Source: an uncultured Candidatus Saccharibacteria bacterium (GTDB taxonomy: Bacteria > Patescibacteriota > Minisyncoccia > JAHISW01 > Tagabacteraceae). Taken from it: a DNA stretch of 64,000 bases. The stretch covers positions 434 through 64,433 of the forward strand of contig CAZRMW010000004.1 of assembly GCA_964601305.1 (NCBI GenBank). The letters run 5' to 3'. Positions 2-60,684 of the stretch are shown piece by piece. Each line of letters begins with the position of its first letter. Positions within the stretch are counted from its first letter, which is position 1. A program made the position numbers and the translations under genes. Below the pieces are notes generated by a model, which saw only the letters and a list, made by a program, of their open reading frames with translations, was not told the DNA's origin and did no database searches.

Positions 2-3000
2 TTTGCAAGAATTGCGTTTGGCGATGAAAGCGATGATGATGTTGGTTTAATTAAATATCAACATACAACAAATGACATGAGGTTCCAGACAAACGGTGCT
101 GAGCAAGTAATAATAGACTCCTCAGGCAACGTGGGGATAGGGACAACGACGCCGGACTTTTTATTGCAAGTAGCTCAAAATGCAAATGCATTAAAATTGT
201 CTAATTATGCTAATACAACGAACCCAATTGAGATGAGAGTTGTTAGACAAAGAACAAGCGGAGCAAACAATGGTTCAACCGACGATATCTTTACATTGTC
301 TGGGTACAAGAGAGCAAGTGGTACTGATGATGAAGTTGCTGCTATTAAATTTATCGGTACTGGTAGTTCAGCTGATGAAGCTAATATTACTTTTTCAACA
401 GCTAATACAGGAGGAGCTTTAACAGAACAAATGAGGATTCAAGATGACGGCAACGTGGGGATTGGGACGAATAGTCCAAACCAGAAGCTACATGTTAACG
501 TAGCTAATGCAGTTTCTGAGAATGTTAATTTCGCGGTGTATGGAAAAATTGCCGGGGCGGCTACATGGGATACAGCCGGTGGATCATTTGCAAATATTGG
601 TACAGGAACCGGAACAAATTATGGAGTTAGTGGAACTGCTTCAGGAGCGGGTACAACTAATATTGGTGGTCATTTTTTGGCTGCAGGAGCGACGAATAAC
701 TATGGTTTAATTGTAAGTTCTGGCAACGTCGGCATTGGTACCACAACACCAGAAACATTATTGAACATACGTGGTACGGATAATACAGAATTTTTGAGAT
801 TAACCGAATCGAATTTTAATTCAGATGCAGGATTAGGTATGGAAGTGCAAGGATCTCAAACAGGGATGAGCTTCTATGTAAATGGAACACAAAAAATGAT
901 GCTAGAAGCTGATGGAGGTGTATCTATAGGAACAAATTACCAAGGTGCGACTAATCCTCCAGCCAACGGTTTGATAGTGGAAGGCAACGTGGGGATAGGG
1001 ACTGTTAGTCCAGAATCAGCACTTACTGTTCAAGACGAAGACGCACAAACAAACGCAGTTCAAAATGTATTAAATATATGGAGGAGTACAACAGGAACTG
1101 CAGCAACAGGATTAGGTGCTGGGATAATGTTCCAACTAGAAGATGACGCAGATTCACTTAGAGGAGCAGGAACAATTGGTTCTAAATGGAAATCTGCAGC
1201 GAATGGTTCCCCTCAAGCTAATTTGTTTTTTGATGACCGTGCTGGAACTACTATTATGACATTAGAACATGGCGGCAACGTGGGGATTGGGACGACGAAC
1301 CCTAATTATAAACTGGAAGTAAATGGTACAGCCTCTACAACTCGTCTATTACTTCCTACAAATAATGACCCAACAACCCCAACAGTGTCTTTTGGGGATG
1401 GCGACACTGGTTTATATGAGGTTGGAGATGACACTATTTCTTGGGCTTTTGGTGGTGCAAGAATATGGACAATAACAAGTAGTAAATTCGCATCGGAAAT
1501 TACAGGTGGTGCTCTATTGGATAGAACTGCATCTAGCGCAACAAACCCAGCACATGCATTTTTTGCCGATGAAGACACTGGAATAGGTAGAGCAGCCGCA
1601 GATACTCTTTCACTTATTACTGCAGCTACGGAAAGAATGCGTATCGACTCCTCTGGCAATGTCGGGATTGGTGTTACAGACCCAGACGAAAAACTAGAAG
1701 TTGCAGGAGCATCTCATTTTGGTAATAGGATAGATATTTATAAGGGCGGAAATGCAACTAAGGTTGCAAATTTAGGTGCTAATGATGATATAGGTTTGTC
1801 TGGTCCAGCGTCAACTGATTTTGTAATTAAAACAACAGAAGCAACGTCAGGCTTTCATGTAAGCACTAGCGGTGATAGTACACCGAATTTTAGTATTATA
1901 GATAGTGGCAACGTCGGCATCGGTACGACGAGTCCAGATGCTGGGTTAGTTGTTAATAAGTCGGGGCTTAATGCTGGTATGATTATAGAAGGCACTTCGG
2001 CGTCGTTGGGTTTTAGGGATACAGAAGCTGGTCACGATGATTTTAGGATTTTAAATGATGCCGATAAATTAAAAATTGGAGTTGATACGGGTGATGTTTT
2101 TTCTAGCGTGTCAAATCTAGTTACAATTCAACAGGACGGCAACGTCGGCATCGGGACTACGGGTCCAGGATATCAATTAGAAGTTAATGTGGATGCAAAC
2201 AGTGAAGGAATAGGTTTAAAGACTGGAGGGACACTACTGGCAGCAATTGAACGTGAAGATACAGACGCAGGAAAACTAGTATTATATGATGGTGCAGCCG
2301 GCAAAATAAAGCTTAATGCTGATGCAGGTGAAGATAGTTGGATTAACAACGGTGGCAATGTCGGCATCGGCACGACGAGTCCGGCATATGTTTTCGAATC
2401 TTATACAAGCGGAAATAATTTTGCTCTAAGTGCAGATTGTGGTGGAGAAGGTGGTTGTGTTTCGATAAAGACCGAAGACGATGCCTCTGGAATTTCTTAT
2501 TATGTGCATGCTAGAGACAAAAATAATCTAGATACAGGATTTCTTTTAGCAGACGGAGGAACTTTTCAGCTGTCCGATGTATCTGACAGAAGATTAAAGA
2601 AAAATATTCGAGAGACTTCTATCAATGGGTTGGAGGTGATAAACAATATAGATGTAAGAGATTTTGAATGGATAGAAAATGATACTACGGTTGTGGGTGG
2701 TTTTATAGCGCAGGAATTACAGTTGGCATTTGCTCCAGCAGCATTTGGCGATCCAGATTCAGACCAAATGATGTCTATCTCCAGAGACAGGTTGGTGCCG
2801 GTTATAATTAAATCTATTCAAGAAATAAGCGACACAATACACATCTCTGAAGAAGGCTATGTAGGACTAGGAAACTTCGATGGACTCACAGCAAGCACAA
2901 CACCACAATACAAGATGCATGTACTAGGCGACGTAGCCGCAGAAAGCTTTGTAAACATCTCCACACAAGAATCTAAGAAAGACATAGAGTACTACACAGA

Positions 3001-3880
3001 AACTAAATACGAAAATGCCCTCACAAAGATAAAAGAAATGAAAGTAGCTAGCTATAACTATGTGAATGATGAATGTGGAATAACGAATGAAGAATGTGAG
3101 CCACAACGACTTGGCCTAATAGCAGAAGAATCCCCAGAAGAAGTACTATCTCTAGACGGCAAAGGAGTAGATCTCTACAAATTATCTTCTTTTATGCTCG
3201 CAGGTCTTAAAGAAACCATAAACAAAGTAGACGAACTAGAAGTGAGAGTAGATAGCCTGGAAGATTTAGTCTCAAACTATGGTAGTTCAACTACGATAGT
3301 TTTGGATGAGCCAGGGCTATTTGGCAGAATGGTAGTATGGCTTACAGACAAAATTCTTTATGTAAAAAGTTTAATTGTAAACGATAAAATTTGCGTAGGG
3401 GAAACTTGTGTAGACGAAAATACACTTAAGGCGCTACTAGAAAATGCAGGGCAAGTGGCTACGACGACACCGAACTCAATTAGCGAAGTTGAACTTCCTT
3501 CGGAAGTGTCAACTTCAACCCCTCAAGACACTACCCCACCAACAATAACCCTACAAGGAAACAACCCAGCTACAGTGAGTATTGGCGCAGAGTACCACGA
3601 CCTAGGAGTAACAATCACAGATAACATGGATAGCAACCTAGGCTACGAAGTATGGAGAAACGGAGAATACCTCGACAGAAACCTTACAGGAGTAAGTGTA
3701 GATACCCAGCCGCAACTTTCGGATGCAGGCGGGCAGGCCAGCACTACAATACATACCATAAGCTACGTAGCGCAAGACCAAGCTGGCAATGTAGCGACAA
3801 GTACGAGAACCATTATAGTATCTGTTGGAGGTCCGACCTCCCTCACAGAAGAAACTGCTACAACAACCCCAACAGAATAA
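2..3880 (+). CDS. Large secreted repeat protein, 5'-partial (open to the window edge). About nine ~100-aa repeats each carry a GNVGIGT(T/S)xP motif. The C-terminus has a peptidase S74 intramolecular-chaperone domain (SDRRLKKNI...GGFIAQEL) and an Ig-like DUF5011-type domain. Phage tail-fibre-like adhesin.
   Basis: ORF 77..3880 of 1267 aa. The frame stays open from nt 2 with no stop and no RBS before the ATG at 77, and Met77 sits in repeat register (MRF/MRI before SSGNVGIG). Matching DNA repeats GGCAACGT(G/C)GG(G/C)AT(A/T/C)GG occur at ~126, 451, 721, 975, 1273, 1656, 1905, 2137 and 2353. The motif SDRRLKKNI plus IAQE matches the endosialidase/tail-fibre chaperone signature. TITLQGNNPATVSIGAEYHDLGVTITD is DUF5011-like. 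Confidence 0.6.
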   Translation, partial: FARIAFGDESDDDVGLIKYQHTTNDMRFQTNGAEQVIIDSSGNVGIGTTTPDFLLQVAQNANALKLSNYANTTNPIEMRVVRQRTSGANNGSTDDIFTLSGYKRASGTDDEVAAIKFIGTGSSADEANITFSTANTGGALTEQMRIQDDGNVGIGTNSPNQKLHVNVANAVSENVNFAVYGKIAGAATWDTAGGSFANIGTGTGTNYGVSGTASGAGTTNIGGHFLAAGATNNYGLIVSSGNVGIGTTTPETLLNIRGTDNTEFLRLTESNFNSDAGLGMEVQGSQTGMSFYVNGTQKMMLEADGGVSIGTNYQGATNPPANGLIVEGNVGIGTVSPESALTVQDEDAQTNAVQNVLNIWRSTTGTAATGLGAGIMFQLEDDADSLRGAGTIGSKWKSAANGSPQANLFFDDRAGTTIMTLEHGGNVGIGTTNPNYKLEVNGTASTTRLLLPTNNDPTTPTVSFGDGDTGLYEVGDDTISWAFGGARIWTITSSKFASEITGGALLDRTASSATNPAHAFFADEDTGIGRAAADTLSLITAATERMRIDSSGNVGIGVTDPDEKLEVAGASHFGNRIDIYKGGNATKVANLGANDDIGLSGPASTDFVIKTTEATSGFHVSTSGDSTPNFSIIDSGNVGIGTTSPDAGLVVNKSGLNAGMIIEGTSASLGFRDTEAGHDDFRILNDADKLKIGVDTGDVFSSVSNLVTIQQDGNVGIGTTGPGYQLEVNVDANSEGIGLKTGGTLLAAIEREDTDAGKLVLYDGAAGKIKLNADAGEDSWINNGGNVGIGTTSPAYVFESYTSGNNFALSADCGGEGGCVSIKTEDDASGISYYVHARDKNNLDTGFLLADGGTFQLSDVSDRRLKKNIRETSINGLEVINNIDVRDFEWIENDTTVVGGFIAQELQLAFAPAAFGDPDSDQMMSISRDRLVPVIIKSIQEISDTIHISEEGYVGLGNFDGLTASTTPQYKMHVLGDVAAESFVNISTQESKKDIEYYTETKYENALTKIKEMKVASYNYVNDECGITNEECEPQRLGLIAEESPEEVLSLDGKGVDLYKLSSFMLAGLKETINKVDELEVRVDSLEDLVSNYGSSTTIVLDEPGLFGRMVVWLTDKILYVKSLIVNDKICVGETCVDENTLKALLENAGQVATTTPNSISEVELPSEVSTSTPQDTTPPTITLQGNNPATVSIGAEYHDLGVTITDNMDSNLGYEVWRNGEYLDRNLTGVSVDTQPQLSDAGGQASTTIHTISYVAQDQAGNVATSTRTIIVSVGGPTSLTEETATTTPTE

Positions 3881-3969
3881 TGTTAGTATTGGTATCCGAA
3901 GGAGATCAGATCTCCTTCAGAAAGGTGCAAAAGGTTGAATAAATTTTGTATTTTTGATAAGGTTATTTT

Positions 3970-4329
3970 ATGGTGAAAAAACAAAAAAAAGAGCCAACAT
4001 CAAGTGATATTTTAGATGCTATTAATAATTTTGCTACTGGTGTAGACAAACGTTTTGATGGTGTAGACAAACGTTTTGATAAAATCGAAGAGAGATTAGA
4101 CAATATAGAGGAGGATATTGTTGAAATGAAAGAAGACATTAGACAAATAAAACTTGAAATAAAAAGTGTTTGGGGTAAACTCGAGGAAATAGAAAAGAGA
4201 TTAGAAAGACTAGAAAAAACAACAAAAGAAGACACAGATACGCTTTCTATAGACGTTTTGAATTTAAGAAAAAAAGTAGAATTTTTAGAAGGCGAAATAA
4301 AGGAACTTCAATTAGTTAATGCAAAATAA
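3970..4329 (+). CDS. Small coiled-coil protein of unknown function, with an exact 21-nt tandem duplication (GVDKRFD x2).
   Basis: 119-aa charged heptad-rich ORF. The DNA segment ggtgtagacaaacgttttgat occurs twice in tandem at 4039-4080. Confidence 0.4.
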   Translation: MVKKQKKEPTSSDILDAINNFATGVDKRFDGVDKRFDKIEERLDNIEEDIVEMKEDIRQIKLEIKSVWGKLEEIEKRLERLEKTTKEDTDTLSIDVLNLRKKVEFLEGEIKELQLVNAK

Positions 4330-4332
4330 AAT

Positions 4333-5022
4333 ATGTCTGAATCAAAAAATAATTTAAAGATAAAAGCTGAAAAAAGAGATATCTTTGGTAAAAAGCTAAG
4401 AGAATCAAGAAAAGAAGGCAAGTTGCCTGCTGTTTTTTACCCGTCCAAAGGCCGGGCAGGCGGTTCTAAAAAAGAAAGCACCTCTATTTTTATAGATCAA
4501 AGCGAATTTGGCAGAGCTTGGAAGAAAGCCGGAGAGTCTACAGTATTAGATTTAGAAGTAGACAATAAAGTTATTCCAGTTTTAATTTACAAAGTAGATT
4601 TAAACCCTCTTACAAGTGAACCAATTCATGTAGATTTTTACGCAGTGGATATGACTAAAAAAGTTTCTACTACAGTGCCGTTTTCTTTTGTGGGAGAAGC
4701 TCCTGCAGTAAAGCTTGGAGGCACACTAGTTGAAGTGATGAGGGAAATAGAAGTAGAAGCTATGCCAGCAGATTTACCTCACGAGATAGAGGTAGATGTT
4801 TCTGTTTTAGAAAACTTTGAAAGTAAAATAACAATTGGAGATCTAAAAATACCAGAAGGTGTAAGTGTTTCCGCAGAAAAAGAAGATGTAATAGCTTTTG
4901 TAGAAGAAGCCAAGGAAGAAGAGGAAGAAGTGCTAGAAGAAGCTGTAAGTGTTGCTGATATTGAGGTAGAGAAGAAAGGAAAACAAGAAGATGAATCAGA
5001 AGGAGAAACTCCTTCTGAATAG
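4333..5022 (+). CDS. rplY: Ribosomal protein bL25 (general stress protein Ctc family) with an acidic C-terminal tail.
   Basis: The N-terminal KRDIFGKKLRESRKEGKLPAVFY motif is typical of L25/Ctc. 229 aa with an E-rich tail. Confidence 0.75.
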   Translation: MSESKNNLKIKAEKRDIFGKKLRESRKEGKLPAVFYPSKGRAGGSKKESTSIFIDQSEFGRAWKKAGESTVLDLEVDNKVIPVLIYKVDLNPLTSEPIHVDFYAVDMTKKVSTTVPFSFVGEAPAVKLGGTLVEVMREIEVEAMPADLPHEIEVDVSVLENFESKITIGDLKIPEGVSVSAEKEDVIAFVEEAKEEEEEVLEEAVSVADIEVEKKGKQEDESEGETPSE

Positions 5023-5054
5023 TAACTAGTAACAAGTAACGGGTAACTAGTAAA
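5021..5054. repeat. Heptamer array, about five copies of AGTAAC(N). Left arm of a ~30-bp imperfect inverted repeat that encloses the four-helix-bundle gene.
   Basis: The sequence agtaactagtaacaagtaacgggtaactagtaaa lies directly between the rplY stop and the 5055 ATG. It is the reverse complement of the array at 5433-5467. Confidence 0.8.
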
Positions 5055-5426
5055 ATGGAAAATAGTATAAAAAATTTCTATGATTTAGAGGCCTGGAAAA
5101 AAGGACATGCTTTGGTTTTGAGTATCTATAAAATTACAGAAAGTTTTCCTAAAGAGGAAACATACGGTATAATTAGTCAACTAAGGAGAGCTTCTAGTTC
5201 TATTACTGCAAATATTGCTGAGGGGTTTGCTCGTTATCATTTTAGAGACAAAATTAGGTTTTATCACAATGCACGCGGCTCAGTTGCGGAGGTTCAAAAT
5301 TTTTTACTTTTAGCAAAGGATCTAAAATTTATTGGTTTAGATATATGTAAAAATTTAGGGAGAGAAGCAGTAGGTGTAAGTAAATTAATAAATGGCTTAA
5401 TAAAATCAATTGAGAAACAAATATAA
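5055..5426 (+). CDS. Four-helix-bundle protein (TIGR02436-type; the family typically encoded in 23S rRNA intervening sequences).
   Basis: 123 aa with YDLEAWKKGHAL...ITESFPKEE..YGIISQLRRASSSITANIAEGFAR...ARGSVAEVQ, a signature of this family. Confidence 0.75.
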   Translation: MENSIKNFYDLEAWKKGHALVLSIYKITESFPKEETYGIISQLRRASSSITANIAEGFARYHFRDKIRFYHNARGSVAEVQNFLLLAKDLKFIGLDICKNLGREAVGVSKLINGLIKSIEKQI

Positions 5427-6810
5427 AAAAAATTACTTGTTACTTGTTACTTGTTACTTGTTACTTGTCGTAGGCGGTGGTTTTGTTTTTGCTGAAGAAA
5501 TTAATGTGGAAAAAGCTCGCGCAGAGCTAGAAGCTGAATTGGCAGAGCTTGAAAAGCAGATGGAAGGATATAATGAAATAATAAAAGGAAAGCAAAGAGA
5601 GGCCACTTCTTTTGAAAGAGACATATCTATATTAGACGCTAAAATAAACAAAGCAAAAGCTGCTATACGATCCAGAAATCTTTCTATAGGCAAGTTAAAC
5701 TCTGGCATAGAAGACAAGAAAATATTTATAGGAGATTTAGATAAAAAAATAGAAGCTGAAAAAATTTCTTTAGCAGAGCTGATAAGAAGAGTAAATGAAA
5801 TGGACACTACAAGTGTAGTAGAAATTCTTTTGGGGTATGATTCTCTCTCGGAATTTTTTGAAGACTTCAGTTCTTTTGAGTCTATACAAAAAGAATTGCA
5901 AGTTTCTTTAGCGGAAATCAGAGGAACCCAAGAGTTAACAGAGAAGGAAAAAGAACAGCTCGAAGAAAAAAAACTAGGAGAGGTTGAATTAAAATCTATT
6001 CAAGAACTTGAAAAGAGAGGGCTTGAAGTAAAAGAAAACGAAAAACAAACACTACTTAAAATTACAAAAGGCGAGGAAGAAAAATACCAGAAAATTTTGG
6101 AAGAAAAAGAGAAATCTGCAGCTGAAATAAGAACAAGAATTTTCCGCTTGTTTGGTGGGGGAGAGTTAAGTTTTGCAGAGGCTGTAAAAATAGCCAAGAT
6201 TGCTGAAAAGGCTAGTGGTATCAGATCTGCTTTCATTTTGGCAGTGTTGGCACAAGAATCGGCACTAGATGGAGTTATTGGTAGAAATTTGGGGCAATGT
6301 TTTTATAATACACACGCAAGCAATTCTAGTGGCACTGTAATGAGTAAAAGCCAAAAGCCTTCGTTTTTGGCAATTATGAAAGAAATTGGTATGGATCCAA
6401 ACAACACTCCGGTTTCTTGCCCAATAGTTTCCGATGGGGCTCATGGTGGAGCGATGGGGCCCGCTCAGTTTATGCCAAGAACATGGTGGGATATAAATTC
6501 TAAAACTGGATACAAAAAAAGAATAGCTCAAATTACTGGCAACAATCCCCCTTCGCCATTTAATAATTCTGACGCTTTTGTGGGAACCTCGCTCTATTTA
6601 AAAGATGCTTACAATTCGAGTGCCTGCAAAAAATATGGCACAGAAAATAAACACATTTCTCCAGAACAATTGCTTAGAGAAAGGTGTGCGGCTGCGAGAT
6701 ACTATGCAGGTGGCGCTTGGTATAAATTTAGATGGGCTTATGGCGAGCCTGTTGTGGAGAGAGCTGCAGAGTTTCAGAAAGATATAAATTTAATAACCAA
6801 TACTCAATAA
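5410..6810 (+). CDS. Secreted coiled-coil protein with a C-terminal MltB-like (SLT_2) lytic murein transglycosylase domain.
   Basis: It has a signal peptide and ~230 aa of E/K-rich coiled coil. The C-terminus carries LAQESAL (catalytic Glu context), GGAMGPAQFMPRTW and NNSDAFVGTSLYLKDA, matching MltB-family motifs. Confidence 0.6.
   Translation: MRNKYKKNYLLLVTCYLLLVVGGGFVFAEEINVEKARAELEAELAELEKQMEGYNEIIKGKQREATSFERDISILDAKINKAKAAIRSRNLSIGKLNSGIEDKKIFIGDLDKKIEAEKISLAELIRRVNEMDTTSVVEILLGYDSLSEFFEDFSSFESIQKELQVSLAEIRGTQELTEKEKEQLEEKKLGEVELKSIQELEKRGLEVKENEKQTLLKITKGEEEKYQKILEEKEKSAAEIRTRIFRLFGGGELSFAEAVKIAKIAEKASGIRSAFILAVLAQESALDGVIGRNLGQCFYNTHASNSSGTVMSKSQKPSFLAIMKEIGMDPNNTPVSCPIVSDGAHGGAMGPAQFMPRTWWDINSKTGYKKRIAQITGNNPPSPFNNSDAFVGTSLYLKDAYNSSACKKYGTENKHISPEQLLRERCAAARYYAGGAWYKFRWAYGEPVVERAAEFQKDINLITNTQ
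5433..5467. repeat. Heptamer array (TTACTTG)x5, the reverse complement of the 5021-5054 array. Right arm of the inverted repeat around the four-helix-bundle gene. It also encodes part of the signal peptide of the next gene.
   Basis: The sequence is ttacttgttacttgttacttgttacttgttacttgt. Translated in the frame of ORF 5410 it gives LLLVTCYLLLV. Confidence 0.8.
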
Positions 6811-6830: not shown

Positions 6831-7604
6831 CTACTTTTTCTTCTTTTCCTTAGACTTTTCTATATACTTTATTATTTTATCTAAATTTCCGTCTAAAATC
6901 TTGTCTATGTTATGCCAAGATTTTTTAAAGCGATGATCGGTAATTCTATCTTGCATAAAATTATAGGTTCGTATTTTCTCGGATCTATCTTGTGTGCCAA
7001 CTTGGTCTCTTCTAAGTTCGCTTACAGAGGCTACTTTTTCTTCTTGCATAGCTTGCATTAGTCTTGCGGTAAGTATTCTCATGGCTTCTTCCCTGTTTCT
7101 TTGTTGGTTTCTTTCCCCTTCGCACCTTACGACAAGCCCAGTTGGTTTGTGAGTAAGTCTTACAGCTGTTTCTACTTTGTTTACATTTTGCCCTCCTTTC
7201 CCCCCAGAGTGAGTAAAGCTCATTTCTATGTCTTCCGGTTTTATTTCCATTTTTTGCTCTGGAAATATTGGAAGTAAAGAAACAGAAGCTGTAGATGTGT
7301 GTATTCGCCCAGATTTTTCTGTTGATGGTATTCTTTGTACACGATGAACCCCAGATTCGTGCGCTAGTTTTTTTGGAGCTTCTGCGTTTTTTATTTTAAA
7401 AGCAACTTCTTTTATTCCCCCCAAGTCATCTTTGGATTTACTTATAAGGTTCATTTTCCAATTTTTAGATTCTGCGTACTTTGTGTACATTCTATATAAA
7501 TCATCAGCAAAAAGCGCAGCTTCTTTTCCTCCTGCGCCAGCACGAATTTCAACTATTACACCAGTTGGTGTGTCTGCATTGTTTTGTTGTATGTTATAGT
7601 CCAC
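6831..7604 (-). CDS. prfA: Peptide chain release factor 1, short form (257 aa) lacking the N-terminal domain 1.
   Basis: [18 protein letters not shown] is the RF1-type PxT tripeptide region. The GGQ motif is [24 protein letters not shown]. The PST-to-GGQ spacing matches RF1, and only a 124-nt intergenic region lies upstream. The gene sits next to rpmE, as in the canonical prfA context. Confidence 0.75.
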
Positions 7605-15320: not shown

Positions 15321-15428
15321 ACAAAACCAAAACTAATTTTTTACTTTCCCTAAATTATGATAATTTAGGGAAGTGTTCGTTTTAGACTCACAAGCACGTA
15401 AAAAATTGTTTTGATTTTGTGTTTTGTA
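15321..15428. repeat. ~100-nt noncoding repeat, copy 1 of 2 (the other is at 51596-51706). It contains the CCCTAAATTAT-GA-TAATTTAGGG hairpin.
   Basis: acaaaaccaaaac...ttttttactttccctaaattatgataatttagggaagtg.tcg.tttag.ctcacaagcacgtaaaaaattgttttg.ttttgtgtttt is nearly identical to the second copy. Confidence 0.8.
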
Positions 15429-17042: not shown

Positions 17043-18038
17043 ATGTTTAAAAAAATATTAAAAATTTTGTTAATAATAATTTTTTTGATGGTTTGTGCTG
17101 GGTGGTTTTTTGTTAGCCGTGTGCCAAAAGTTGAGCCAAAAAATTTTGGTATTACATATTCTGTAAAAATGGCAAAAGATTTTGGTATAGACTGGCAAGA
17201 AGCTTTTGAAGCATCTTTAGAAGATTTGGGAGTTAAAAAAATAAGGATCCCTGTGTATTGGGATGAAGTTGAAAAAGAGGAGGGAGTGTGGGATTTTTCT
17301 CAAATAGATTGGATGCTTGAGCAAGCAGAAAAGTATGATGCTGAAATTGTCCTTGCTGTTGGTAAGAAGGTGCCGCGGTGGCCGGAATGCCATACCCCGC
17401 ACTGGGTGCGGGAATTTTCAATTTCCAATTCTCAATTTTCAAACGAAAAACTACTAAACTATATAGAAACTACGATTAAACGATACGACGACAAAGAGGT
17501 GGTAAAATATTGGCAAATAGAAAACGAGCCATTTTTAAAATTTGGGATTTGCCCTAATTACGATCCATATTTTGTTGATGAAGAAATTAAGCTTGTAAAA
17601 AGTTTATCGGACAAAAAAATAATAATGTCCGATGGAGGTGAATTTGGAGATTGGGTTAGGGCGTACAAAAGAACGGATGTTTTTGGGTCTACTTTGTATC
17701 GTCACATAGTTTCTAGATTTATGGGAGAATGGACATATCCAATTCCTTCTTGGGTTTTTAGATTAAGGCAGGGAATAGTAAAAACTTTTTATGGGGATAA
17801 ACCAAGAATAGTGATAGAGCTACAATCAGAGCCGTGGATAGATGGTGTGGTAAAAGACTCTACTGTAGAAAGGCAGTACGAGGGCTTTGGCCCAGAAAGA
17901 TTTAAAGAAATGATGAAGTATATAGAAGGCACTGGTTTTGATACTTTTTATTTCTGGGGTGTTGAATGGTGGTACTTCTTAAAAGAGCAAGGCCACCCAG
18001 AAATGTGGGATTTGGCTAAGGAGAAAATAAGTTCTTGA
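17043..18038 (+). CDS. Membrane-anchored glycoside hydrolase, GH5-like TIM barrel with an IENEP acid/base motif.
   Basis: N-terminal TM, then IRIPVYWDEVE...AEIVLAVG...WQIENEP. Confidence 0.45.
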   Translation: MFKKILKILLIIIFLMVCAGWFFVSRVPKVEPKNFGITYSVKMAKDFGIDWQEAFEASLEDLGVKKIRIPVYWDEVEKEEGVWDFSQIDWMLEQAEKYDAEIVLAVGKKVPRWPECHTPHWVREFSISNSQFSNEKLLNYIETTIKRYDDKEVVKYWQIENEPFLKFGICPNYDPYFVDEEIKLVKSLSDKKIIMSDGGEFGDWVRAYKRTDVFGSTLYRHIVSRFMGEWTYPIPSWVFRLRQGIVKTFYGDKPRIVIELQSEPWIDGVVKDSTVERQYEGFGPERFKEMMKYIEGTGFDTFYFWGVEWWYFLKEQGHPEMWDLAKEKISS

Positions 18039-21035: not shown

Positions 21036-21554
21036 ATGGAAAACTTAAAACCTTTGTTTGAAAGTTTTTTAAATTTAGATATTAAAGAGAGTATTAATTT
21101 GGAAGAAGTTTCCAACATAGACAAACTTATATCCTATTGGAAAAACACTTCTTCAGATTCAAAGCCAGAAGAACTCATCGAAGCTAGAATGGTTGTGGTT
21201 TTGGAAGAAGTTTCCAACATAGACAAACTTATATCCTACTGGGAAAACACTTCTTCAGATTCAAAACCAAAAGAACTCATCGAAGCTAGAATGGTTGTGG
21301 TTTTGGAAGAACAGCTTCCAAACATTTCCGACATAGACAAACTTATATCCTACTGGGAAAACACTTCTTCGGACTCAAAGCCAAGAAAACTCATCGAAGC
21401 TAGAATGGTTGTGGTTTTGGAAGAAGTTTCCGAAAAGAATATTGAAGATATTCCCGACTGGTTTATTGGTTTATTAAAAAACGAGGTTAAAATACCCAAT
21501 TTTTTGAAAGAAAAATTTAAAGAGAAGGCAAAGAGTATTTATCGAAATTTTTAA
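21036..21554 (+). CDS. Hypothetical protein with three near-identical tandem ~35-38-aa repeats (EEVSNIDKLISYWENTSSDSKP.ELIEARMVVVLEE).
   Basis: Strong RBS aaaggagggg. The DNA tandem repeats span ~21101-21425 and are almost identical at nucleotide level. Confidence 0.55.
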   Translation: MENLKPLFESFLNLDIKESINLEEVSNIDKLISYWKNTSSDSKPEELIEARMVVVLEEVSNIDKLISYWENTSSDSKPKELIEARMVVVLEEQLPNISDIDKLISYWENTSSDSKPRKLIEARMVVVLEEVSEKNIEDIPDWFIGLLKNEVKIPNFLKEKFKEKAKSIYRNF

Positions 21555-28923: not shown

Positions 28924-29760
28924 ATGAAATTTTTTATAGCTTTTATAATCATATTTCTTTTTTCCTTTAATGTTCAAGCGTCAGAAAGCGAACTAAATAT
29001 ATCAAGATCTTTTTTGGGTGCATATAAGAAAACAGTGCGTTTTGAAGAAGATATTAAAAAACACAGAAGAAAGTACGACATAAACAGAGAGCTGGCTTTT
29101 GCTATTGCCATGTTTGAGACAGGTGGGAATGAAGAACTTGTCTCTTCAATGGGTGCACAAAAACTTTTTCAGGTAATGCCCGCAACTTTTAGGGCAATGA
29201 ATGTTCCAAGCAACATTGAGGCTGGAATAAAATATTTAAAAATATTAAGCAAGATTTTTAAAAAAAGAGACGATATAATTATGGCTTACAATGGTGGACC
29301 GAGCAGAGTAAAAAGAAGAAAACCAAAAACAGAAACACAACAGTATCTTTTGGGCGTTAATGCTTATCTTGATTTGTTAGAAAACAAAAAATCAAGAATA
29401 AAAAAAATTATACAGGGCTTAAAAATTATAAAACTTGAAAAGGATTATGCTTGGGAAGATTTATCTAAAAAATTGCAGGTTTCTATTGTTGAACTTCGTT
29501 TATATAATCCCTTTATCGCGTACAGAAGCAAAAAAATAATAAAAAGTGGTGGGATTATTGTTTATCCTAAAATTTCACAAAAAGTTGTTAGCGACGATGG
29601 TTATTATACGGTGAGGCAAGGAGATATTCTGCATCACTTAGCAAATGCTTTTGGTTTTAGTTATGATGAAATGAGAGAAAGAACCAACACTGCTATGGTA
29701 GAGTCAATAAAACCAGGTACAAAGATAGATGTTTCTGATTCTCATTTCATACAAAAATAA
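28924..29760 (+). CDS. Secreted SLT-domain lytic transglycosylase with two LysM domains.
   Basis: Signal peptide. AMFETGGNEELVSSMGAQKLFQVMPATF is SLT. YYTVRQGDILHHLANAFG...IKPGTKIDV is LysM. Confidence 0.6.
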   Translation: MKFFIAFIIIFLFSFNVQASESELNISRSFLGAYKKTVRFEEDIKKHRRKYDINRELAFAIAMFETGGNEELVSSMGAQKLFQVMPATFRAMNVPSNIEAGIKYLKILSKIFKKRDDIIMAYNGGPSRVKRRKPKTETQQYLLGVNAYLDLLENKKSRIKKIIQGLKIIKLEKDYAWEDLSKKLQVSIVELRLYNPFIAYRSKKIIKSGGIIVYPKISQKVVSDDGYYTVRQGDILHHLANAFGFSYDEMRERTNTAMVESIKPGTKIDVSDSHFIQK

Positions 29761-33782: not shown

Positions 33783-33910
33783 AAAACCTACTCTAAGACA
33801 CGCTATCGCTCCAGTTAGGGTAGGTTTTGGAATTTTGACCTTGGTTTTAAAGTTTAATTTTTGAAAAGGTACAAAGTCTAGCGGTCGCGGAGGTTTGTAT
33901 CTTTTGTTTT
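33783..33910. repeat. Composite repeat R1, copy 1. A 12-bp-stem hairpin AAACCTAC.CTA...TAGGGTAGGTTT with a GCTATCGC loop core is followed by the AAAAGGTACAAAGTCTAGCGGTCGCGGAGGTTTGTA module.
   Basis: It matches 42601-42700 (both modules) and 58974-59019 (hairpin only). Confidence 0.8.
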
Positions 33911-34005
33911 TATAAACTATAGACAAGAAATATAATGTGTGTTAGTTTTGTCTGCAGAAACATAAAATAATTAACCAGCGCTACACAAAGAAAAGGAGGA
34001 AGAAA

Positions 34006-39764: not shown

Positions 39765-42071
39765 ATGCAAGAGAACAAAAAAACAACTGAAAATATACGC
39801 AATTTTTGTATTATTGCACACATAGACCATGGTAAATCTACCTTGGCTGATAGGCTATTGGAATTAACAAATACAGTTGAAGAAAGGAAAATGAAAAATC
39901 AAGTTTTAGACCAAATGGAACTTGAGAGGGAAAGAGGTATAACTATAAAAATGCAGCCTGTTAAAATGATTTACCTGATAAACCATTTTAACCGCGGACT
40001 TACGCAGAAAAAGACGCAGAAAAACGCGGAAAAGCTTTTGTATAGCGATCTTACTTATAAGATTCGTGGGATATTATTTAATGTTAGAAAAAAAATTGGG
40101 TTAGGCCACAAAGAACAAGTTTATCATAATGCGTTAGAAATAGAATTTAAAAATGCAGGGTTGAGATTTGAGAGCAAAAAGAATATTCCAATTTTATACA
40201 ATAACAAAAAAATAGGCATGTACCAGCCTGATTTTTTGGTAGAGGATAAGGTTATGATTGAATTAAAAGCCCTGCCAGAAATAGGAAGAACGCAGAGAGA
40301 GCAGATTTGGTCTTATCTAAAAGGGTGTGAATATAAACTTGCTTTGTTGGTTAATTTTGGTTCTAGGGATTTGGAAATTAAAAGAATTGTTTACGATACA
40401 GCTCGGGAGTTTTCTGCGTCTTCTGCGTTAAGTCTGCGGGATTCAGCGGGAGTGGAAGATAAGATTGAGAATTATATTCTCAATCTTATCGACACTCCAG
40501 GGCATATAGATTTTTCTTACGAAGTTTCCAGGTCTTTAAAGGCTGTCGAGGGAGCAGTGCTTTTGGTTGATGCCACACAAGGAGTGCAAGCACAAACTAT
40601 TTCTAATCTAGAAATAGCAAGATCTCTCGATTTAGTAATTGTACCAGTGATAAACAAGATAGATAGTCCACTAGCAAGAACAGACGAGGTAAAGAAAGAA
40701 ATTGTGGAGATACTTAATTGTAAAGAAGAAGATGTTTTGGAGGTGTCAGCAAAAACTAGCGAGGGGGTAGAAAAACTTCTTGAAGAAGTCATCTCTCGTG
40801 TTCCTTCTCCGCGTCGAAGCCAGGCTTTGACGCAAAATTTGAAAGCTCTAGTTTTCGATTTTGAATACTCTTCGCATAAAGGGATAATACTTTATGTTAG
40901 GATTATGGGTGGATCTATAAAAAAGGGAGACAAAGTTTTTCTTTTTCAAACCGGCAAAGATTTTATTGCTAGCGAAGTGGGTATTTTTACCCCATCTCCA
41001 AAAAGTAAAAATAGTTTAGAAAATGGAGAAATAGGATATATAATAACTAGTCTGAAAGAAACAAACATTGCTTCTGTTGGTGATACTTTGTTTTCTTTTT
41101 CTGAAAAAAATAATCCAGATTTATTACCACTGAAGGGGTACAAAACACCCTCGCCAGTAGTTTGGGCTAGTATTTATCCAGAATCTCAAGATGATTTTAT
41201 GAGCCTGAGACAATCACTAGAAAGGCTTAGTTTGGCAGATAGCTCTTTAAGTTTTGAAGAGGAAGAAAGCGGTATTTTGGGGCGTGGATTTAGGTGTGGT
41301 TTTTTGGGAATGCTACACCTTGAGATTGTTGCAGAGCGTCTTAAAAGAGAGTTTAATCTTGATTTGATTGTAGCTACTCCAAGCGTCGTTTATAAAATTG
41401 AAGATCAAAATGGCAATGAGAAAGAAATATATTCAGCAGCACTTTTTCCAGAAAGTCATCAAATAAAAAAAATTTTTGAGCCGTGGGTAGACATAAAAAT
41501 AATGACTCCTTTTGAAAAAATGAATGACGTAATGCAGGTACTTAAAAGACACAAGGCAATAATTGGTGATACTGAAGATTTTGGTAGTGACAGAATAGTA
41601 ATAAAAAATCAAATGCCACTTAGAGAGATGATGAACAATTTCTTTGAGGATTTAAAGAGTGCTACATCGGGCTATGCATCACTTAGCTACGAAATTATAG
41701 ACGAAAGACCCGGAGACCTTGTTTGTTTAAAAGTTTTGTTAAACGATGAGGTTATTCCTGCTTTTTCAAAAATTGTAGAAAGGGGAGATATACAAAGAGA
41801 GGCGAAAAATTTAGCTGAAAAACTGAAGAAATTTTTACCTAAAGCTCTGTTTGTTATAAAAATTCAGGTAAAAGCCTTGGGAAGAATTTTGGCAGCTCAA
41901 AGAATTTCGGCTTTAAAAAAGGATGTGACAGGGCATTTGTACGGGGGAGATATAAGCAGAAAACAAAAACTTTGGAAAAAACAAAAAAAGGGTAAAGAAA
42001 AATTAAAAAAACACGGGAAGGTAAATATTCCTCACAGTGTTTTTATAAATATGATAAAAAATAGGGATTAG
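39765..42071 (+). CDS. lepA: Elongation factor 4 (LepA) carrying a ~165-aa in-frame insertion between the G2 and G3 motifs.
   Basis: FCIIAHIDHGKSTLADRLL, GITIKMQ, [insert], LIDTPGHIDFSYEVSRSL, VVPVINKID, plus the LepA C-terminal domain. The total is 768 aa against ~600 typical. Confidence 0.85.
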   Translation: MQENKKTTENIRNFCIIAHIDHGKSTLADRLLELTNTVEERKMKNQVLDQMELERERGITIKMQPVKMIYLINHFNRGLTQKKTQKNAEKLLYSDLTYKIRGILFNVRKKIGLGHKEQVYHNALEIEFKNAGLRFESKKNIPILYNNKKIGMYQPDFLVEDKVMIELKALPEIGRTQREQIWSYLKGCEYKLALLVNFGSRDLEIKRIVYDTAREFSASSALSLRDSAGVEDKIENYILNLIDTPGHIDFSYEVSRSLKAVEGAVLLVDATQGVQAQTISNLEIARSLDLVIVPVINKIDSPLARTDEVKKEIVEILNCKEEDVLEVSAKTSEGVEKLLEEVISRVPSPRRSQALTQNLKALVFDFEYSSHKGIILYVRIMGGSIKKGDKVFLFQTGKDFIASEVGIFTPSPKSKNSLENGEIGYIITSLKETNIASVGDTLFSFSEKNNPDLLPLKGYKTPSPVVWASIYPESQDDFMSLRQSLERLSLADSSLSFEEEESGILGRGFRCGFLGMLHLEIVAERLKREFNLDLIVATPSVVYKIEDQNGNEKEIYSAALFPESHQIKKIFEPWVDIKIMTPFEKMNDVMQVLKRHKAIIGDTEDFGSDRIVIKNQMPLREMMNNFFEDLKSATSGYASLSYEIIDERPGDLVCLKVLLNDEVIPAFSKIVERGDIQREAKNLAEKLKKFLPKALFVIKIQVKALGRILAAQRISALKKDVTGHLYGGDISRKQKLWKKQKKGKEKLKKHGKVNIPHSVFINMIKNRD
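39978..40478 (+). mobile_element. IVS-type insertion within lepA. It encodes a GxxExxY-family (TIGR04256-like, PD-(D/E)xK-like) domain and is bounded by ~30-bp imperfect inverted repeats.
   Basis: The GHKEQVY motif and NALEIEF are present. The left arm aaccgcggacttacgcagaaaaagacgcagaaaaacgcgg at 39990-40029 is the reverse complement, with ~85% identity, of the right arm gagttttctgcgtcttctgcgttaagtctgcggg at 40407-40440. Confidence 0.65.
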
Positions 42072-42214: not shown

Positions 42215-42601
42215 ATGAAAGAAATAAGACAAAGAAGCCGTTTTAGAAAGATGTTTTTTTCTTTGCCGGTTCTTTTGTTCTTTTTAGCTGTTTGTGTGTT
42301 TTTTTCTGTTTCCTTGCTAAAGATTTATAAAAAAAGTAGAAACGCAGTTTTAAGCAACGAATCAGTAATAGAAGAAATAGGGAAAATAGAAAAAAGAGAG
42401 AAGGATTTGTCGGCAAGCATTAATCAATTGAGGGGCGGGTTTGGTGCAGAAAAAGAATTACGCGAAAAATTTAATGTAAAAAAACCAGGAGAGGAGTTTG
42501 TGGTAATAATAGATAATAGTAAAAAGGGTGAAGAGGACACAGACAAAGAAAAGAAGGATCAGGGATTTTTCAAAAAAGTTTTAGAATTACTAAAGTTTTA
42601 A
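42215..42601 (+). CDS. Septum formation initiator (FtsB/DivIC-like) protein.
   Basis: N-terminal TM, a coiled coil, then LRGGFGAEKELREKFNVKKPGEEFVVI. Confidence 0.5.
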   Translation: MKEIRQRSRFRKMFFSLPVLLFFLAVCVFFSVSLLKIYKKSRNAVLSNESVIEEIGKIEKREKDLSASINQLRGGFGAEKELREKFNVKKPGEEFVVIIDNSKKGEEDTDKEKKDQGFFKKVLELLKF

Positions 42602-42700
42602 AAACCTACCCTATAGCACGCTATCGCCCGAGTTAGAGTAGGTTTCAAAAAAGGTACAAAGTCTAGTGGTCGCGGAGGTTTGTACTTTTTTGTTTTTGGT
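42601..42700. repeat. Composite repeat R1, copy 2.
   Basis: aaacctaccctatagcacgctatcgcccgagttagagtaggttt followed by aaaaaggtacaaagtctagtggtcgcggaggtttgtac. Confidence 0.8.
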
Positions 42701-51595: not shown

Positions 51596-51706
51596 ACACA
51601 AAACCAAAACCGAATTTTTTACTTTCCCTAAATTATGATAATTTAGGAAAGTGCTCGCTTTAGGCTCACAAGCACGTAAAAAATTGTTTTGGTTTTGTGT
51701 TTTTAC
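51596..51706. repeat. ~100-nt noncoding repeat, copy 2 of 2 (the other is at 15321-15428).
   Basis: Near-identical, including the CCCTAAATTATGATAATTTAGG hairpin and CTCACAAGCACGTAAAAAATTGTTTTG. Confidence 0.8.
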
Positions 51707-52430: not shown

Positions 52431-52460
52431 GCTGGTTGAATTCCTAAACTTTTCGTCGAT

Positions 52461-52495
52461 TACTTGTTACTAGTTACTTTTTACTTGTTACTTCG
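52461..52495. repeat. Heptamer array, third copy of the AGTAACA-type array. It overlaps the last 7 codons and the stop of thrS.
   Basis: Plus strand tacttgttactagttactttttacttgttacttcg. The minus-strand reading gives D-E-V-T-S-K-K-stop. Confidence 0.75.
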
Positions 52496-53745
52496 TCTAT
52501 AATCTTTTCTACAAACTCTTCTAGCTTCATTGTTTCTTGCCCGCCTCGCGTCGATGAGTCTCCGCGAGTCGAGGCGGGCTCTCCATCGCGCGGATTTACT
52601 GCCACAGTGCCATCTTTTTCTTCTTTTTCGCCAACTACCAAAATGTATGGTAGTTTTTCTTTTTTTGTGTTAGCAATTTTTTTACCCAAAGTCTCGTTGT
52701 CTAAATCTATCTCCGCGCGAATATTATTTTCTTTCAAGATTTCTAAAACTTTATTTCCATAATCATTAAATTTTTCACTAACGGGAAGCACTTTTACTTG
52801 CACAGGCGAGAGCCACACAGGAAATGCCCCCTGATACTGCTCAATAAGCATGGCCATAGTACGCTCAAGAGCACCAATAGAAGATCTATGAATTATCATT
52901 GGGCGGTGTTTTCCTCCGTCTTTTCCTTCGTATGTCATATCAAATCTTTCTGGCAAGGCAAAATCTATTTGAATAGTAAAAATAGTATCTTCTTTACCAA
53001 AGACATTTTTCATTTCTACATCTAACTTTGGTCCATAAAAGGCGGCTTCGCCATCAGCTTCTTCGTACTTAAGACCCATCTTGTCAATAATTTTTTTCAT
53101 CATTTTTTGGGAGTTTTTCCAGGCCTCTGGATTGTCTATATATTTTTCTTTGTCTTTGGGATTCCATTTAGAAAATCTATACCAGTAGTTTTCAAAGCCA
53201 AGAGATTTCATTACATATTGTACCAAGTCTACAACATTTTCAAATTCTTCTTCGAGCTGTTCAGGTAGGCAAATAATGTGTGCGTCGGCCAAAGTAAATT
53301 GACGTACACGAATAAGACCGTGCATTTCTCCAGATTGTTCGTTTCTAAAAAGACTTGCAATCTCGGCGTATTTAATTGGTAGGTCTCTGTAACTTCTGGG
53401 CTTGGACTTGTAAATCATAAATTGGTGAGGACATGTCATTGGCCTAAGTACTAGTTCTTCGTCTCCACAATCAAAAACAAACATACTTTCTTTGTAGTGG
53501 TCTAAGTGGCCAGAAATTTTATATAAGTCACTTTTTGCTAGCACTGGAGTATCTGTGTATTCGTAGCCTCTTTTTATTTCTTCGTCTTCTATAAATCTTC
53601 TTAAAATTCTTTTAAGTGTAGCGCCCTTTGGAGTAAGAAGTGGTAAACCACGCCCAATAACATCGCTTTGCACAAAGAGATCTAATTCTTTCCCTATTTT
53701 TATATGGTCCTTCTTGTTTTCTTTATCCATTTTTATTTTCTTCAT
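52474..53745 (-). CDS. thrS: Threonine--tRNA ligase, short form (class II core plus anticodon-binding domain, no N-terminal editing/TGS domains).
   Basis: Motifs FRNEQSGEMHGLIRVRQFT, HRSSIGALERTMAMLIE, the anticodon-binding PVQVKVLPVSEK, and the characteristic ThrRS zinc-site context. Confidence 0.8.
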   Translation of the reverse strand: MKKIKMDKENKKDHIKIGKELDLFVQSDVIGRGLPLLTPKGATLKRILRRFIEDEEIKRGYEYTDTPVLAKSDLYKISGHLDHYKESMFVFDCGDEELVLRPMTCPHQFMIYKSKPRSYRDLPIKYAEIASLFRNEQSGEMHGLIRVRQFTLADAHIICLPEQLEEEFENVVDLVQYVMKSLGFENYWYRFSKWNPKDKEKYIDNPEAWKNSQKMMKKIIDKMGLKYEEADGEAAFYGPKLDVEMKNVFGKEDTIFTIQIDFALPERFDMTYEGKDGGKHRPMIIHRSSIGALERTMAMLIEQYQGAFPVWLSPVQVKVLPVSEKFNDYGNKVLEILKENNIRAEIDLDNETLGKKIANTKKEKLPYILVVGEKEEKDGTVAVNPRDGEPASTRGDSSTRGGQETMKLEEFVEKIIDEVTSKK

Positions 53746-58825: not shown

Positions 58826-58852
58826 ATGATATGTAGTCGGTTAAACAACATT

Positions 58853-58888
58853 GCCCTGCGAGCATTGCGCTCCGCAGGGCGTTTTTTG
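58853..58888 (+). terminator. Intrinsic terminator GCCCTGCG-AGCATTGCGCTC-CGCAGGGC followed by TTTTTT. Copy 1 of a duplicated terminator.
   Basis: The copy at 60648-60684 has an identical stem-loop sequence. Confidence 0.7.
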
Positions 58889-58973: not shown

Positions 58974-59019
58974 AAAACCTACTCTAAGCGGTGCTATCGC
59001 CCCAGTTAGGGTAGGTTTT
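58974..59019. repeat. R1 hairpin module, copy 3 (AAAACCTACTCTAAG...TTAGGGTAGGTTTT). It is preceded by two further perfect hairpins at 58901-58926 and 58937-58966.
   Basis: ATGATTGAAGT-TGG-ACTTCAATCAT and CCACCTAAATCTAG-GG-CTAGATTTAGGTGG. Confidence 0.7.
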
Positions 59020-60632: not shown

Positions 60633-60647
60633 AAACAAAAAACAATA

Positions 60648-60684
60648 CCGCCCTGCGAGCATTGCGCTCCGCAGGGCGTTTTTT
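60648..60684 (+). terminator. Intrinsic terminator, copy 2 of the duplicated GCCCTGCGAGCATTGCGCTCCGCAGGGCGTTTTTT element.
   Basis: It is identical to the copy at 58853-58888. Confidence 0.7.

Follow-up and report, generated by a model that had tools for sequence, protein, structure and literature searches.

The giant fiber gene at the edge of the window

The window, as the term is used here, is the whole stretch of 64,000 nucleotides analyzed from contig CAZRMW010000004.1 of an uncultured Candidatus Saccharibacteria bacterium (assembly GCA_964601305.1), and its first gene is the 3' part of a giant fiber gene (2..3880, + strand), the subject of this study. The gene encodes a shaft of beta-rich repeats followed by two S74 domains in tandem, a long helix, and an immunoglobulin (Ig)-like domain, and its product is probably a cell-surface fiber encoded on a bacterial chromosome. 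All features of the gene described below lie on the + strand. The reading frame is open from nt 2, at the window edge, to the TAA stop codon at 3878-3880, which gives 1292 codons plus the stop, and its 5' end is outside the window, as an earlier preliminary description of this DNA, made from the letters alone, had stated. An exact look-up with a small downstream open reading frame (ORF) returned 11 metagenome contigs carrying that ORF, six of which were fetched. No difference from the window was seen across the compared sequence in L001, L002, L003, and L005, a single base differs in L006, and the far end of L004 is divergent. In L002, whose copy is likewise truncated at the 5' end, the fiber ORF continues for another 382 codons upstream. 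This sets a minimum gene length of 1674 codons, of which the portion in the window corresponds to approximately the 3' three-quarters.

Every contig found for the fiber locus terminates within the fiber gene. Species-representative genomes scanned with the fiber protein yielded no close relative, and a scan of JGI metagenome contigs for the 5' end, using the upstream 382 amino acids (aa) of L002, returned only relatives that are about 30% identical. A contig with a 76% local match to these 382 aa (L121) was rejected, as it carries an unrelated phage-type fiber, and the common part is only a short stretch near the repeat core (...NVGIGVTDPDEKLEV). The fiber protein has a large size, a repetitive sequence, and a high content of Gly, Thr, Asn, and Ser, and neither a transmembrane-like segment nor an LPxTG motif was found in the visible 1674 aa. 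A perfect 10-bp palindrome without a T-run (GAAGGAGATC A GATCTCCTTC; 3897-3917) lies 17 nt past the fiber stop codon and was not called in a consensus terminator scan.

Repeats and homology of the shaft

The shaft (2..2581) consists of degenerate beta-rich units of 64 to 127 aa, each with a GNVGIGTxxPxxxL "capping-loop" motif, and at least 15 such units are present in the total visible protein. The cores of the shaft within the window are located at nt 125, 449, 722, 914 (degenerate), 983, 1274, 1655, 1907, 2138, and 2354. The exact hexapeptide GNVGIG occurs nine times in the window protein (aa 42, 150, 241, 328, 425, 552, 636, 713, and 785), together with two degenerate cores, GGVSIG at aa 305 and GYVGLG at aa 952, the latter of which lies between the two S74 domains; the nine or more repeats counted previously are thus confirmed. 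The cores are spaced 64 to 127 aa apart, except for the degenerate GGVSIG, which is 23 aa ahead of the next core, and GNVGIG is absent elsewhere across the six frames of the window. A ninefold nucleotide repeat, GGCAACGTSGGSATYGG, had also been claimed, but this pattern matches only five times (0 expected by chance), and nine copies are reached only with the looser pattern GGNAAYGTNGGNATNGG, in which two more positions are degenerate. Outside the 17-nt core, the nucleotide identity among the copies is 60 to 76%.

In a phmmer search of the whole protein against the PDB, Bdellovibrio Bd2133 (8OND) was matched at an E value of 7.8e-9, along with two chains labeled "cell wall surface anchor family." The profile built for the shaft from homologous segments (alignment A2) matched 8OND at an E value of 1.1e-29 and also 8OML, 8OJN, 8OL4, and 8ON4. 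These five distinct chain sequences (9 PDB entries) are mosaic adhesive trimeric (MAT) fibers, besides which the profile matched nothing in the PDB at an E value of ≤0.01. By this homology, the shaft would form a trimeric beta-helix. In addition, phage tail-fiber families of the PHROG database match the shaft at E values of 2.6e-56 and 1.4e-38, and both S74 domains also match such families. Since the shaft matches phage families as well as MAT fibers, this repeat type is common to phages and cells.

Tandem S74 domains and the module that follows them

The Pfam family Peptidase_S74 (PF13884) matches the whole protein at an E value of 3.6e-17 (62.8 bits) in two stretches. When the pieces were scanned separately, S74a (aa 861 to 911) scored 44.6 bits and S74b (aa 990 to 1044) scored 27.2 bits; each is above the curated Pfam cutoff of 22 bits, so the protein has two S74 domains in tandem. 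S74a (2582..2842) is a canonical intramolecular-chaperone/autoprotease domain with the motif SDRRLK, in which S861 (2582-2584) is the putative nucleophile and K866 (2597-2599) is the putative base; they occupy positions 1 and 6 of the Pfam profile, with S861 starting SDRRLKKNI. S74b (2960..3238) belongs to a distinct, always-internal subtype with the motif STQESK and a putative Ser-Lys pair formed by S987 (2960-2962) and K992 (2975-2977). By extrapolation, S987 is at profile position 1; the Asp of SDxxxK is replaced by Thr, and the Ser-Lys spacing is kept. The Ser-Lys pair is retained in 47/47 S74a-type relatives and in 82/83 relatives of the S74b type. The two domains are separated by an extra shaft-type unit (2843..2959) that reads GYVGLG (2855-2872) ... 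TPQYKMHV ... GDVAAESFVNI and is conserved across the b-type subfamily as GN(I/V)GIG..TP.YKLHV.GDVAATSFVNI, an arrangement suggestive of a joint duplication of the last shaft unit and S74. The catalytic serines are followed by 432 (S861) and 306 (S987) residues, and neither S74 domain is therefore at the extreme C terminus.

The AlphaFold2 (AF2) model of aa 840 to 1292 has a mean predicted local distance difference test (pLDDT) score of 74; the values are about 90 for S74b and the helix after it, about 94 for the Ig-like domain, and moderate for S74a. In a Foldseek search against the PDB, the best S74-type structural match is the intramolecular chaperone auto-processing (ICA) domain of MyRF (7DC3), with a probability of 1.0, a TM score of 0.54 to 0.58, and an E value of about 8e-3; the E values are modest because the query is multidomain. 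Among viral models, tail fibers and "intramolecular chaperone auto-processing" proteins were matched. At the sequence level, S74a has only a weak PDB match to the phage tail fiber 8JOV (E = 0.049), and an NCBIfam scan of the fiber protein identified no family. The S74 domain recognized previously at SDRRLKKNI is thus borne out by the profile match that starts exactly at S861, and S74 and tail-fiber similarity is seen in Pfam, in PHROGs, and in the structural similarity to the ICA domain of MyRF and to phage S74 proteins.

S74b is left by a long helix of 35 residues (3173..3277; residues 219 to 253 of the AF2 model, pLDDT 92 to 95, with 81 for the last block), which is probably a trimeric coiled coil. 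It is followed in the AF2 model by a small module of a beta-hairpin and a helix (3332..3448) with the conserved motif C-V-G-x-T-C-V (C1131 and C1136), which reads C-V-G-E-T-C-V in the window and is also present in the related proteins P0159 and P0162, and then by a disordered Thr/Ser/Pro linker. The Ig-like domain (3542..3823; pLDDT about 94) matches Bact_surface_Ig-like (PF16403, formerly DUF5011) with 37 bits, above the curated cutoff of 27 bits, and Foldseek matched it to many Ig/PKD-like adhesin domains in the PDB. The short C-terminal tail (3824..3877) is rich in Thr, Pro, and Glu and has no LPxTG motif and no transmembrane segment. The preliminary description had placed a DUF5011 domain after the S74 domain; the Ig-like domain is indeed downstream, but a second S74 domain, which that account had missed, intervenes.

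Relatives and the b-type S74 subfamily

The long copy of the fiber protein from L002 has 4039 relatives of 1100 to 2900 aa at an E value of ≤1e-5. Over any sizable portion of the query, their identity is at most 31%; two matches have 43 to 45% identity over only 9% of it. Many of these relatives, in Kaiserbacteria, Pacebacteria, Parcubacteria, Verrucomicrobia, Flavobacteriales, or Margulisbacteria, are labeled "tail fiber domain-containing protein," and some have the C-terminal module in its entirety. An exhaustive search with the segment from S74b to the end retrieved 4408 proteins at an E value of ≤1e-3, including 151 at ≤1e-30, and dozens of them match end to end at 40 to 50% identity. On the basis of profiles built in this analysis and applied to the retrieved proteins, 86 proteins carry a b-type S74 domain; 40 of them have another S74 domain just upstream, 32 do not, and 14 are fragments in which this is undecidable. 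The b-type domain is internal in all 86, with 90 to 460 residues after it (median, 254), compared with a median of 10 residues in conventional S74 relatives. The b-type subfamily is populated and mostly derived from the candidate phyla radiation (CPR); apart from those in L135 to L137 (see below), its representatives occur on contigs as long as 642 kb, and those that carry a name are Parcubacteria or Paceibacterota. A candidate free-standing 503-aa C-terminal module (P0125) was discarded, since it is really the end of a gene of about 2180 aa that is split by a run of N.

On viral contigs, b-like S74 domains show 25 to 34% identity and are terminal in 10 of the 11 examined, with 4 to 29 residues after the domain. 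A scan of the C-terminal module against viral contigs, in which a single protein served as the query, revealed no close relative; alignment A1 was rejected as a seed for the viral scan because it is too diverse. The closest relative of S74a is P0138 (53% identity), a tail fiber encoded within a myovirus-like tail/baseplate module, and the likeness includes the residues just ahead of the cleavage site (GTFQLSDVSDRRIK), which suggests a recent exchange between a phage and the CPR fiber gene. The phage contig that carries P0138 (L133, 1-21281; Logan SRR9178386) contains a complete myovirus-like tail/baseplate module.

Three full-length relatives, the L135 protein, P0111, and P0118, have a helix-turn-helix (HTH)-type N terminus. 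Of these, the L135 protein and P0118 were covered by the scan for hydrophobic helices. The L135 protein matches HTH_17 with 31.9 bits and has a hydrophobic helix at aa 63 to 98, and P0118 has an HTH-like N terminus and a hydrophobic segment at aa 162 to 181; the HTH and helix of these two proteins suggest a membrane anchor with the N terminus inside and the C terminus outside the cell. P0111 (2671 aa; L137, 8404-16419) carries an intein (Intein_splicing) and an NYN domain inside the fiber gene, and a second segment of HTH-like type lies at aa 1466 to 1516.

Chromosomal context and affiliation of the organism

The fiber gene is followed on the same strand by an ORF encoding a 119-aa coiled-coil protein (3970..4329), which has only subthreshold matches to coiled-coil Pfam families, and by the chromosomal marker rplY (L25/Ctc; 4333..5022), which matches Ribosomal_L25p and TL5_C. 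The fiber gene was previously said to be next to rplY, but the 119-aa ORF intervenes; this ORF was considered as a fiber partner and rejected, as no conserved copy of it accompanies the homologues in L135 to L137. The translation and RNA genes of the window are rplY and those for a release factor, rpsB, tsf, nusB, tRNA-Thr, trmD, lepA, pheT, and a class II aminoacyl-tRNA synthetase, and RNase P RNA and the start of 16S rRNA are also present. Genes of transcription and replication (rpoB, rpoC, dnaG, gyrB, dnaE, and that of an SMC-like ATPase) and of the cell envelope (murJ and cell wall hydrolases) were found as well. Among the genes scanned in the remaining approximately 60 kb, there are no phage structural genes; they are housekeeping genes or have no match to a phage family, and the PHROG matches of the neighbors are limited to coiled-coil noise and one Avd-like four-helix protein.

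Three contigs of 22 to 187 kb (L135, L136, and L137) carry fiber genes with the same C-terminal module as the window gene. The gene order is gyrB-tgt-fiber-uvrBAC in L135 and gatB-...-fiber-...-GAPDH-...-rpiB-...-rpe-tkt in L137, both of which are chromosomal on both sides of the fiber gene. In L136, the order is fiber-IVP-...-GAPDH-rpiB-rpe-tkt on the downstream side, and no upstream genes were called. The absence of a phage context stated in the preliminary description thus holds for about 60 kb downstream of the window gene, the upstream side of which lies outside the recovered contigs.

The best match of RpoB among species representatives is 68% identical and belongs to a Patescibacteria metagenome-assembled genome, and the next matches (62 to 65%) are mostly labeled Paceibacterota, Nomurabacteria, Lloydbacteria, or "uncultured Candidatus Saccharibacteria." The GC content of the window is 35%. 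A best RpoB match of no more than 68% to Patescibacteria, followed by CPR-labeled records, supports the assignment of the organism to the Patescibacteria (CPR), in agreement with the CPR origin assumed earlier.

Cassette duplication within the shaft

L002 contains an exact 271-nt direct duplication in the shaft, one copy of which is located at 1653..1923 of the window and the other 2298 nt upstream (766 codons, in frame), outside the window. Two successive GNVGIG cores delimit the cassette, and the flanks of the two copies are unrelated (31 to 43% identity). Position 1653 is also exactly where L003, a contig from an independent JGI assembly, begins, and such a break would be expected of assemblers at a genuine repeat. 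The preliminary description had called the gene recombinogenic on account of its nucleotide repeats. The 17-nt cores alone are poor recombination substrates and make a weak case for this; the exact duplication of the cassette supports gene conversion or duplication at the cassette level, and it suggests that a change in fiber length by recombination is plausible.

Comparison with known S74 and MAT fibers

S74 domains (PF13884) are known as C-terminal chaperones of phage proteins such as the K1F endosialidase and the T5 L-shaped tail fiber. The window gene resembles these in its Pfam membership, its Ser-Lys dyad, the 53% identity of S74a to P0138, and the PHROG matches of its shaft, whereas phage S74 domains are terminal and discarded and those of the window gene are internal and encoded among ribosomal and core genes. 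For cleavage at an internal S74 domain that separates two functional parts, MyRF provides the nearest precedent; a cut at its S74 domain divides an N-terminal part from a substantial C-terminal remainder. MyRF is, however, a eukaryotic transcription factor of the endoplasmic reticulum membrane with a single S74 domain, a downstream transmembrane anchor, a DNA-binding part that is released, and no fiber shaft.

The MAT fibers described by Caulton et al. 2024 are cell-encoded, surface-displayed trimeric beta-helices with capping loops, and 13 of the 21 MAT fibers of Bdellovibrio end in an S74 domain that cleaves itself at SDxxxK (PMC10769870). The window gene likewise encodes a giant fiber in a cellular genome with a homologous shaft and, by sequence, the same capping-loop motif, V-G-x-x-x-x-P-x-x-x-L, and its shaft leads into an S74 domain with SDxxxK, as in the S74 subgroup of MAT fibers (e.g., Bd3182). 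The carriers of MAT fibers live on or in other bacteria, as is assumed for the lineage of the window. The two differ in that MAT members with S74 end in a single S74 domain, whereas the window gene has two, with a coiled coil and an Ig-like domain downstream of them. The C terminus of a MAT fiber is either S74 or an alternative adhesive tip, and the window gene has elements of both kinds in series, an order (S74-S74-coiled coil-Ig) that is not described in the MAT paper (PMC10769870). MAT fibers also have a signal peptide and a conserved beta-rich N-terminal domain of about 130 aa, in place of which the CPR relatives have an HTH-type domain, and they are typically about 1000 aa long, in contrast to the at least 1674 aa of the window protein. 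No CPR member is mentioned in the portions of the supplementary text of that paper that were searched (PMC10769870).

The window gene thus belongs to the known cell-encoded fibers of the S74/MAT type, and such CPR proteins have already been annotated automatically as "tail fiber domain-containing." The new features are the tandem S74 domains, the distinct S74 subtype that is always internal and has coiled-coil and Ig-like domains after it, and the recurrence of this subtype on CPR chromosomes. No description of any of the three was found in the literature that could be searched, in which no paper connects Patescibacteria with S74 or tail-fiber proteins.

Proposed function and alternative explanations

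On balance, the gene probably encodes a chromosomal cell-surface fiber of a CPR bacterium, of the MAT/phage-tail-fiber type and at least 1674 aa long, that would be trimerized through S74, self-cleaved, anchored, and in contact with other cells. By analogy with phage tailspikes and the Bdellovibrio MAT fibers, the S74 domains would nucleate the trimerization of the intertwined shaft and its folding, starting at the C-terminal end. As in other S74 proteins, the chain would then be cut just before the serine at S861 and/or S987, and the predicted products are 432 aa (cut at S861), 126 and 306 aa (both cuts), or 306 aa (cut at S987). The N-terminal fiber would remain attached to the cell, and the C-terminal fragment would either be shed, exposing the fiber tip, or be kept as a cap. 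The most likely role of such a fiber would be contact with, or attachment to, the surface of another cell.

Several points weigh against this reading. No signal peptide or anchor was seen for the window gene, whose 5' end is outside all contigs found, and many family members lack an obvious N-terminal hydrophobic segment (19/111). The AF2 monomer model of the shaft (aa 535 to 860; 18-sequence alignment) is unusable, with a pLDDT of 49, so that the trimeric beta-helix rests on homology, and the sequence of S74b has no significant match in the PDB. Trimerization is argued from sequence and cleavage by analogy, and both S74 domains are internal, unlike the canonical S74 domains that are released. 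Adhesion by the fiber and an episymbiotic lifestyle of this lineage are assumptions, and free-living Parcubacteria are reported in the title of PMC12625730.

The conserved module after the S74 domains may be shed, kept as a cap or tip, or active by itself. The b-type S74 domain could act as a MyRF-like release switch rather than a disposable chaperone, in which cuts at S861 and S987 after trimerization outside the cell would free a separate trimeric coiled-coil/Ig-like particle (aa 987 to 1292) and a small S74a fragment; this remains a tentative minority view. If it is true, the freed piece would have a function of its own, for example as a soluble lectin-like factor by which the host surface is marked or primed, or as a cap that masks the fiber tip until contact. 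It is unlikely that the S74 domains are structural trimerization nodes only, with none or one of them cleaving and the coiled coil and Ig-like domain staying attached as an adhesive tip. Such an arrangement would account for the 90 to 460 residues that always follow the b-type domain, often with Ig-like domains resembling adhesin tips, and for the apparent wastefulness of discarding an elaborate conserved downstream module, and MAT fibers do carry diverse C-terminal tip domains (PMC10769870). The retention of the dyad in nearly all b-type and all a-type domains is nevertheless hard to explain without catalysis, and the dyad cleaves in every S74 protein studied (PMC10769870).

That the gene is instead a tail-fiber gene of a phage or prophage, perhaps a remnant with its structural module upstream of the window, is very improbable. 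Phage tail-fiber PHROGs do match the shaft and both S74 domains, the closest S74a relative lies in a genuine myovirus-like module, and the upstream context of the window gene is outside the recovered contigs. However, the approximately 60 kb downstream is purely housekeeping, the relatives in L135 and L137 are chromosomal on both sides and that in L136 is chromosomal downstream, the C-terminal module has no close relative on viral contigs, and the viral b-like S74 domains are both divergent and, with one exception, terminal. The large, repetitive, Gly/Thr/Asn/Ser-rich composition of the protein is shared with many surface-coat proteins and would fit an envelope, S-layer-like, or decoy protein (a structural coat or a phage-receptor mimic) without a role in cell-cell attachment. 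The homology is specifically to fiber-forming adhesins with solved trimeric fiber structures rather than to S-layer families, and no S-layer or SLH domain was detected in Pfam and NCBIfam scans of the fiber protein, which leaves a noncontact role of this kind highly doubtful. The cell-surface fiber that contacts other cells is the preferred explanation.

Other features of the window

A 23S_rRNA_IVP/Avd-like four-helix gene (5055-5426, + strand) is flanked by inverted arrays of the heptamer GTTACTT, the arms of which (5025-5060 and 5433-5468) are 81% complementary, and a similar array is located at 52445-52507. An IVP gene is also found directly after the fiber homologue in L136. This Avd-like neighbor prompted the consideration of the fiber gene as the target of a diversity-generating retroelement, which was rejected, as there is no reverse transcriptase in the ORFs scanned and no template repeat; no long repeat of the fiber gene occurs elsewhere in the window.

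In the LepA (EF4) gene (39765-42071, + strand), the GTPase domain is interrupted at aa 95 to 208 by a PD-(D/E)XK nuclease domain (PF13366; 111 bits), possibly an intein-less mobile insertion or an insert specific to the CPR. The release factor ORF (6831-7604, - strand) encodes only 257 aa, and the PCRF profile is matched from position 100 on, so that the protein seems to lack its N-terminal domain. There is no CTTTGAC frameshift site near this ORF, and L001 gives the same 257-aa call. Cell-wall-active enzymes of the SLT_2-like, SLT+LysM, Amidase_3+PG_binding_1, and glycoside-hydrolase-like types are encoded at 5410-6810, 28924-29760, 62147-63394, and 17043-18038 (all + strand) and could serve in the turnover of the cell's own wall or in attack on a host wall.

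Short palindromic repeats are present in intergenic regions at 33783-33828, 42601-42646, and 58974-59019, and further pairs are located at 58843-58887 and 60640-60684 and at 33864-33911 and 42649-42696. The copies within these families are 83 to 94% identical and may be repetitive extragenic palindromic (REP)-like elements or shared terminator hairpins. In addition, a 103-nt repeat with 91% identity occurs at two positions 36 kb apart (15323-15425 and 51601-51703), and three tandem 107-nt copies (91 to 93% identical; 21109-21431) lie inside an ORF at 21036-21554.

Implications for CPR bacteria

How ultrasmall CPR/Patescibacteria recognize and hold their hosts is largely unknown, and the attachment literature found concerns type IV pili in Saccharibacteria. 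The present analysis introduces no new principle; it extends a known kind of S74/MAT fiber to a new lineage and a new domain order. Paceibacteria-type CPR genomes carry on their chromosomes fibers of the kind by which Bdellovibrio recognizes its prey and phages recognize their hosts, and the signature GDVAATSFVNISTxxxKKDI...RLGLIAEEAP...GKGVD.YKL can be used to find such fibers in other CPR genomes. The fiber described here is a testable candidate for the attachment of CPR bacteria to other cells, with S861 and S987 as residues that can be mutated.

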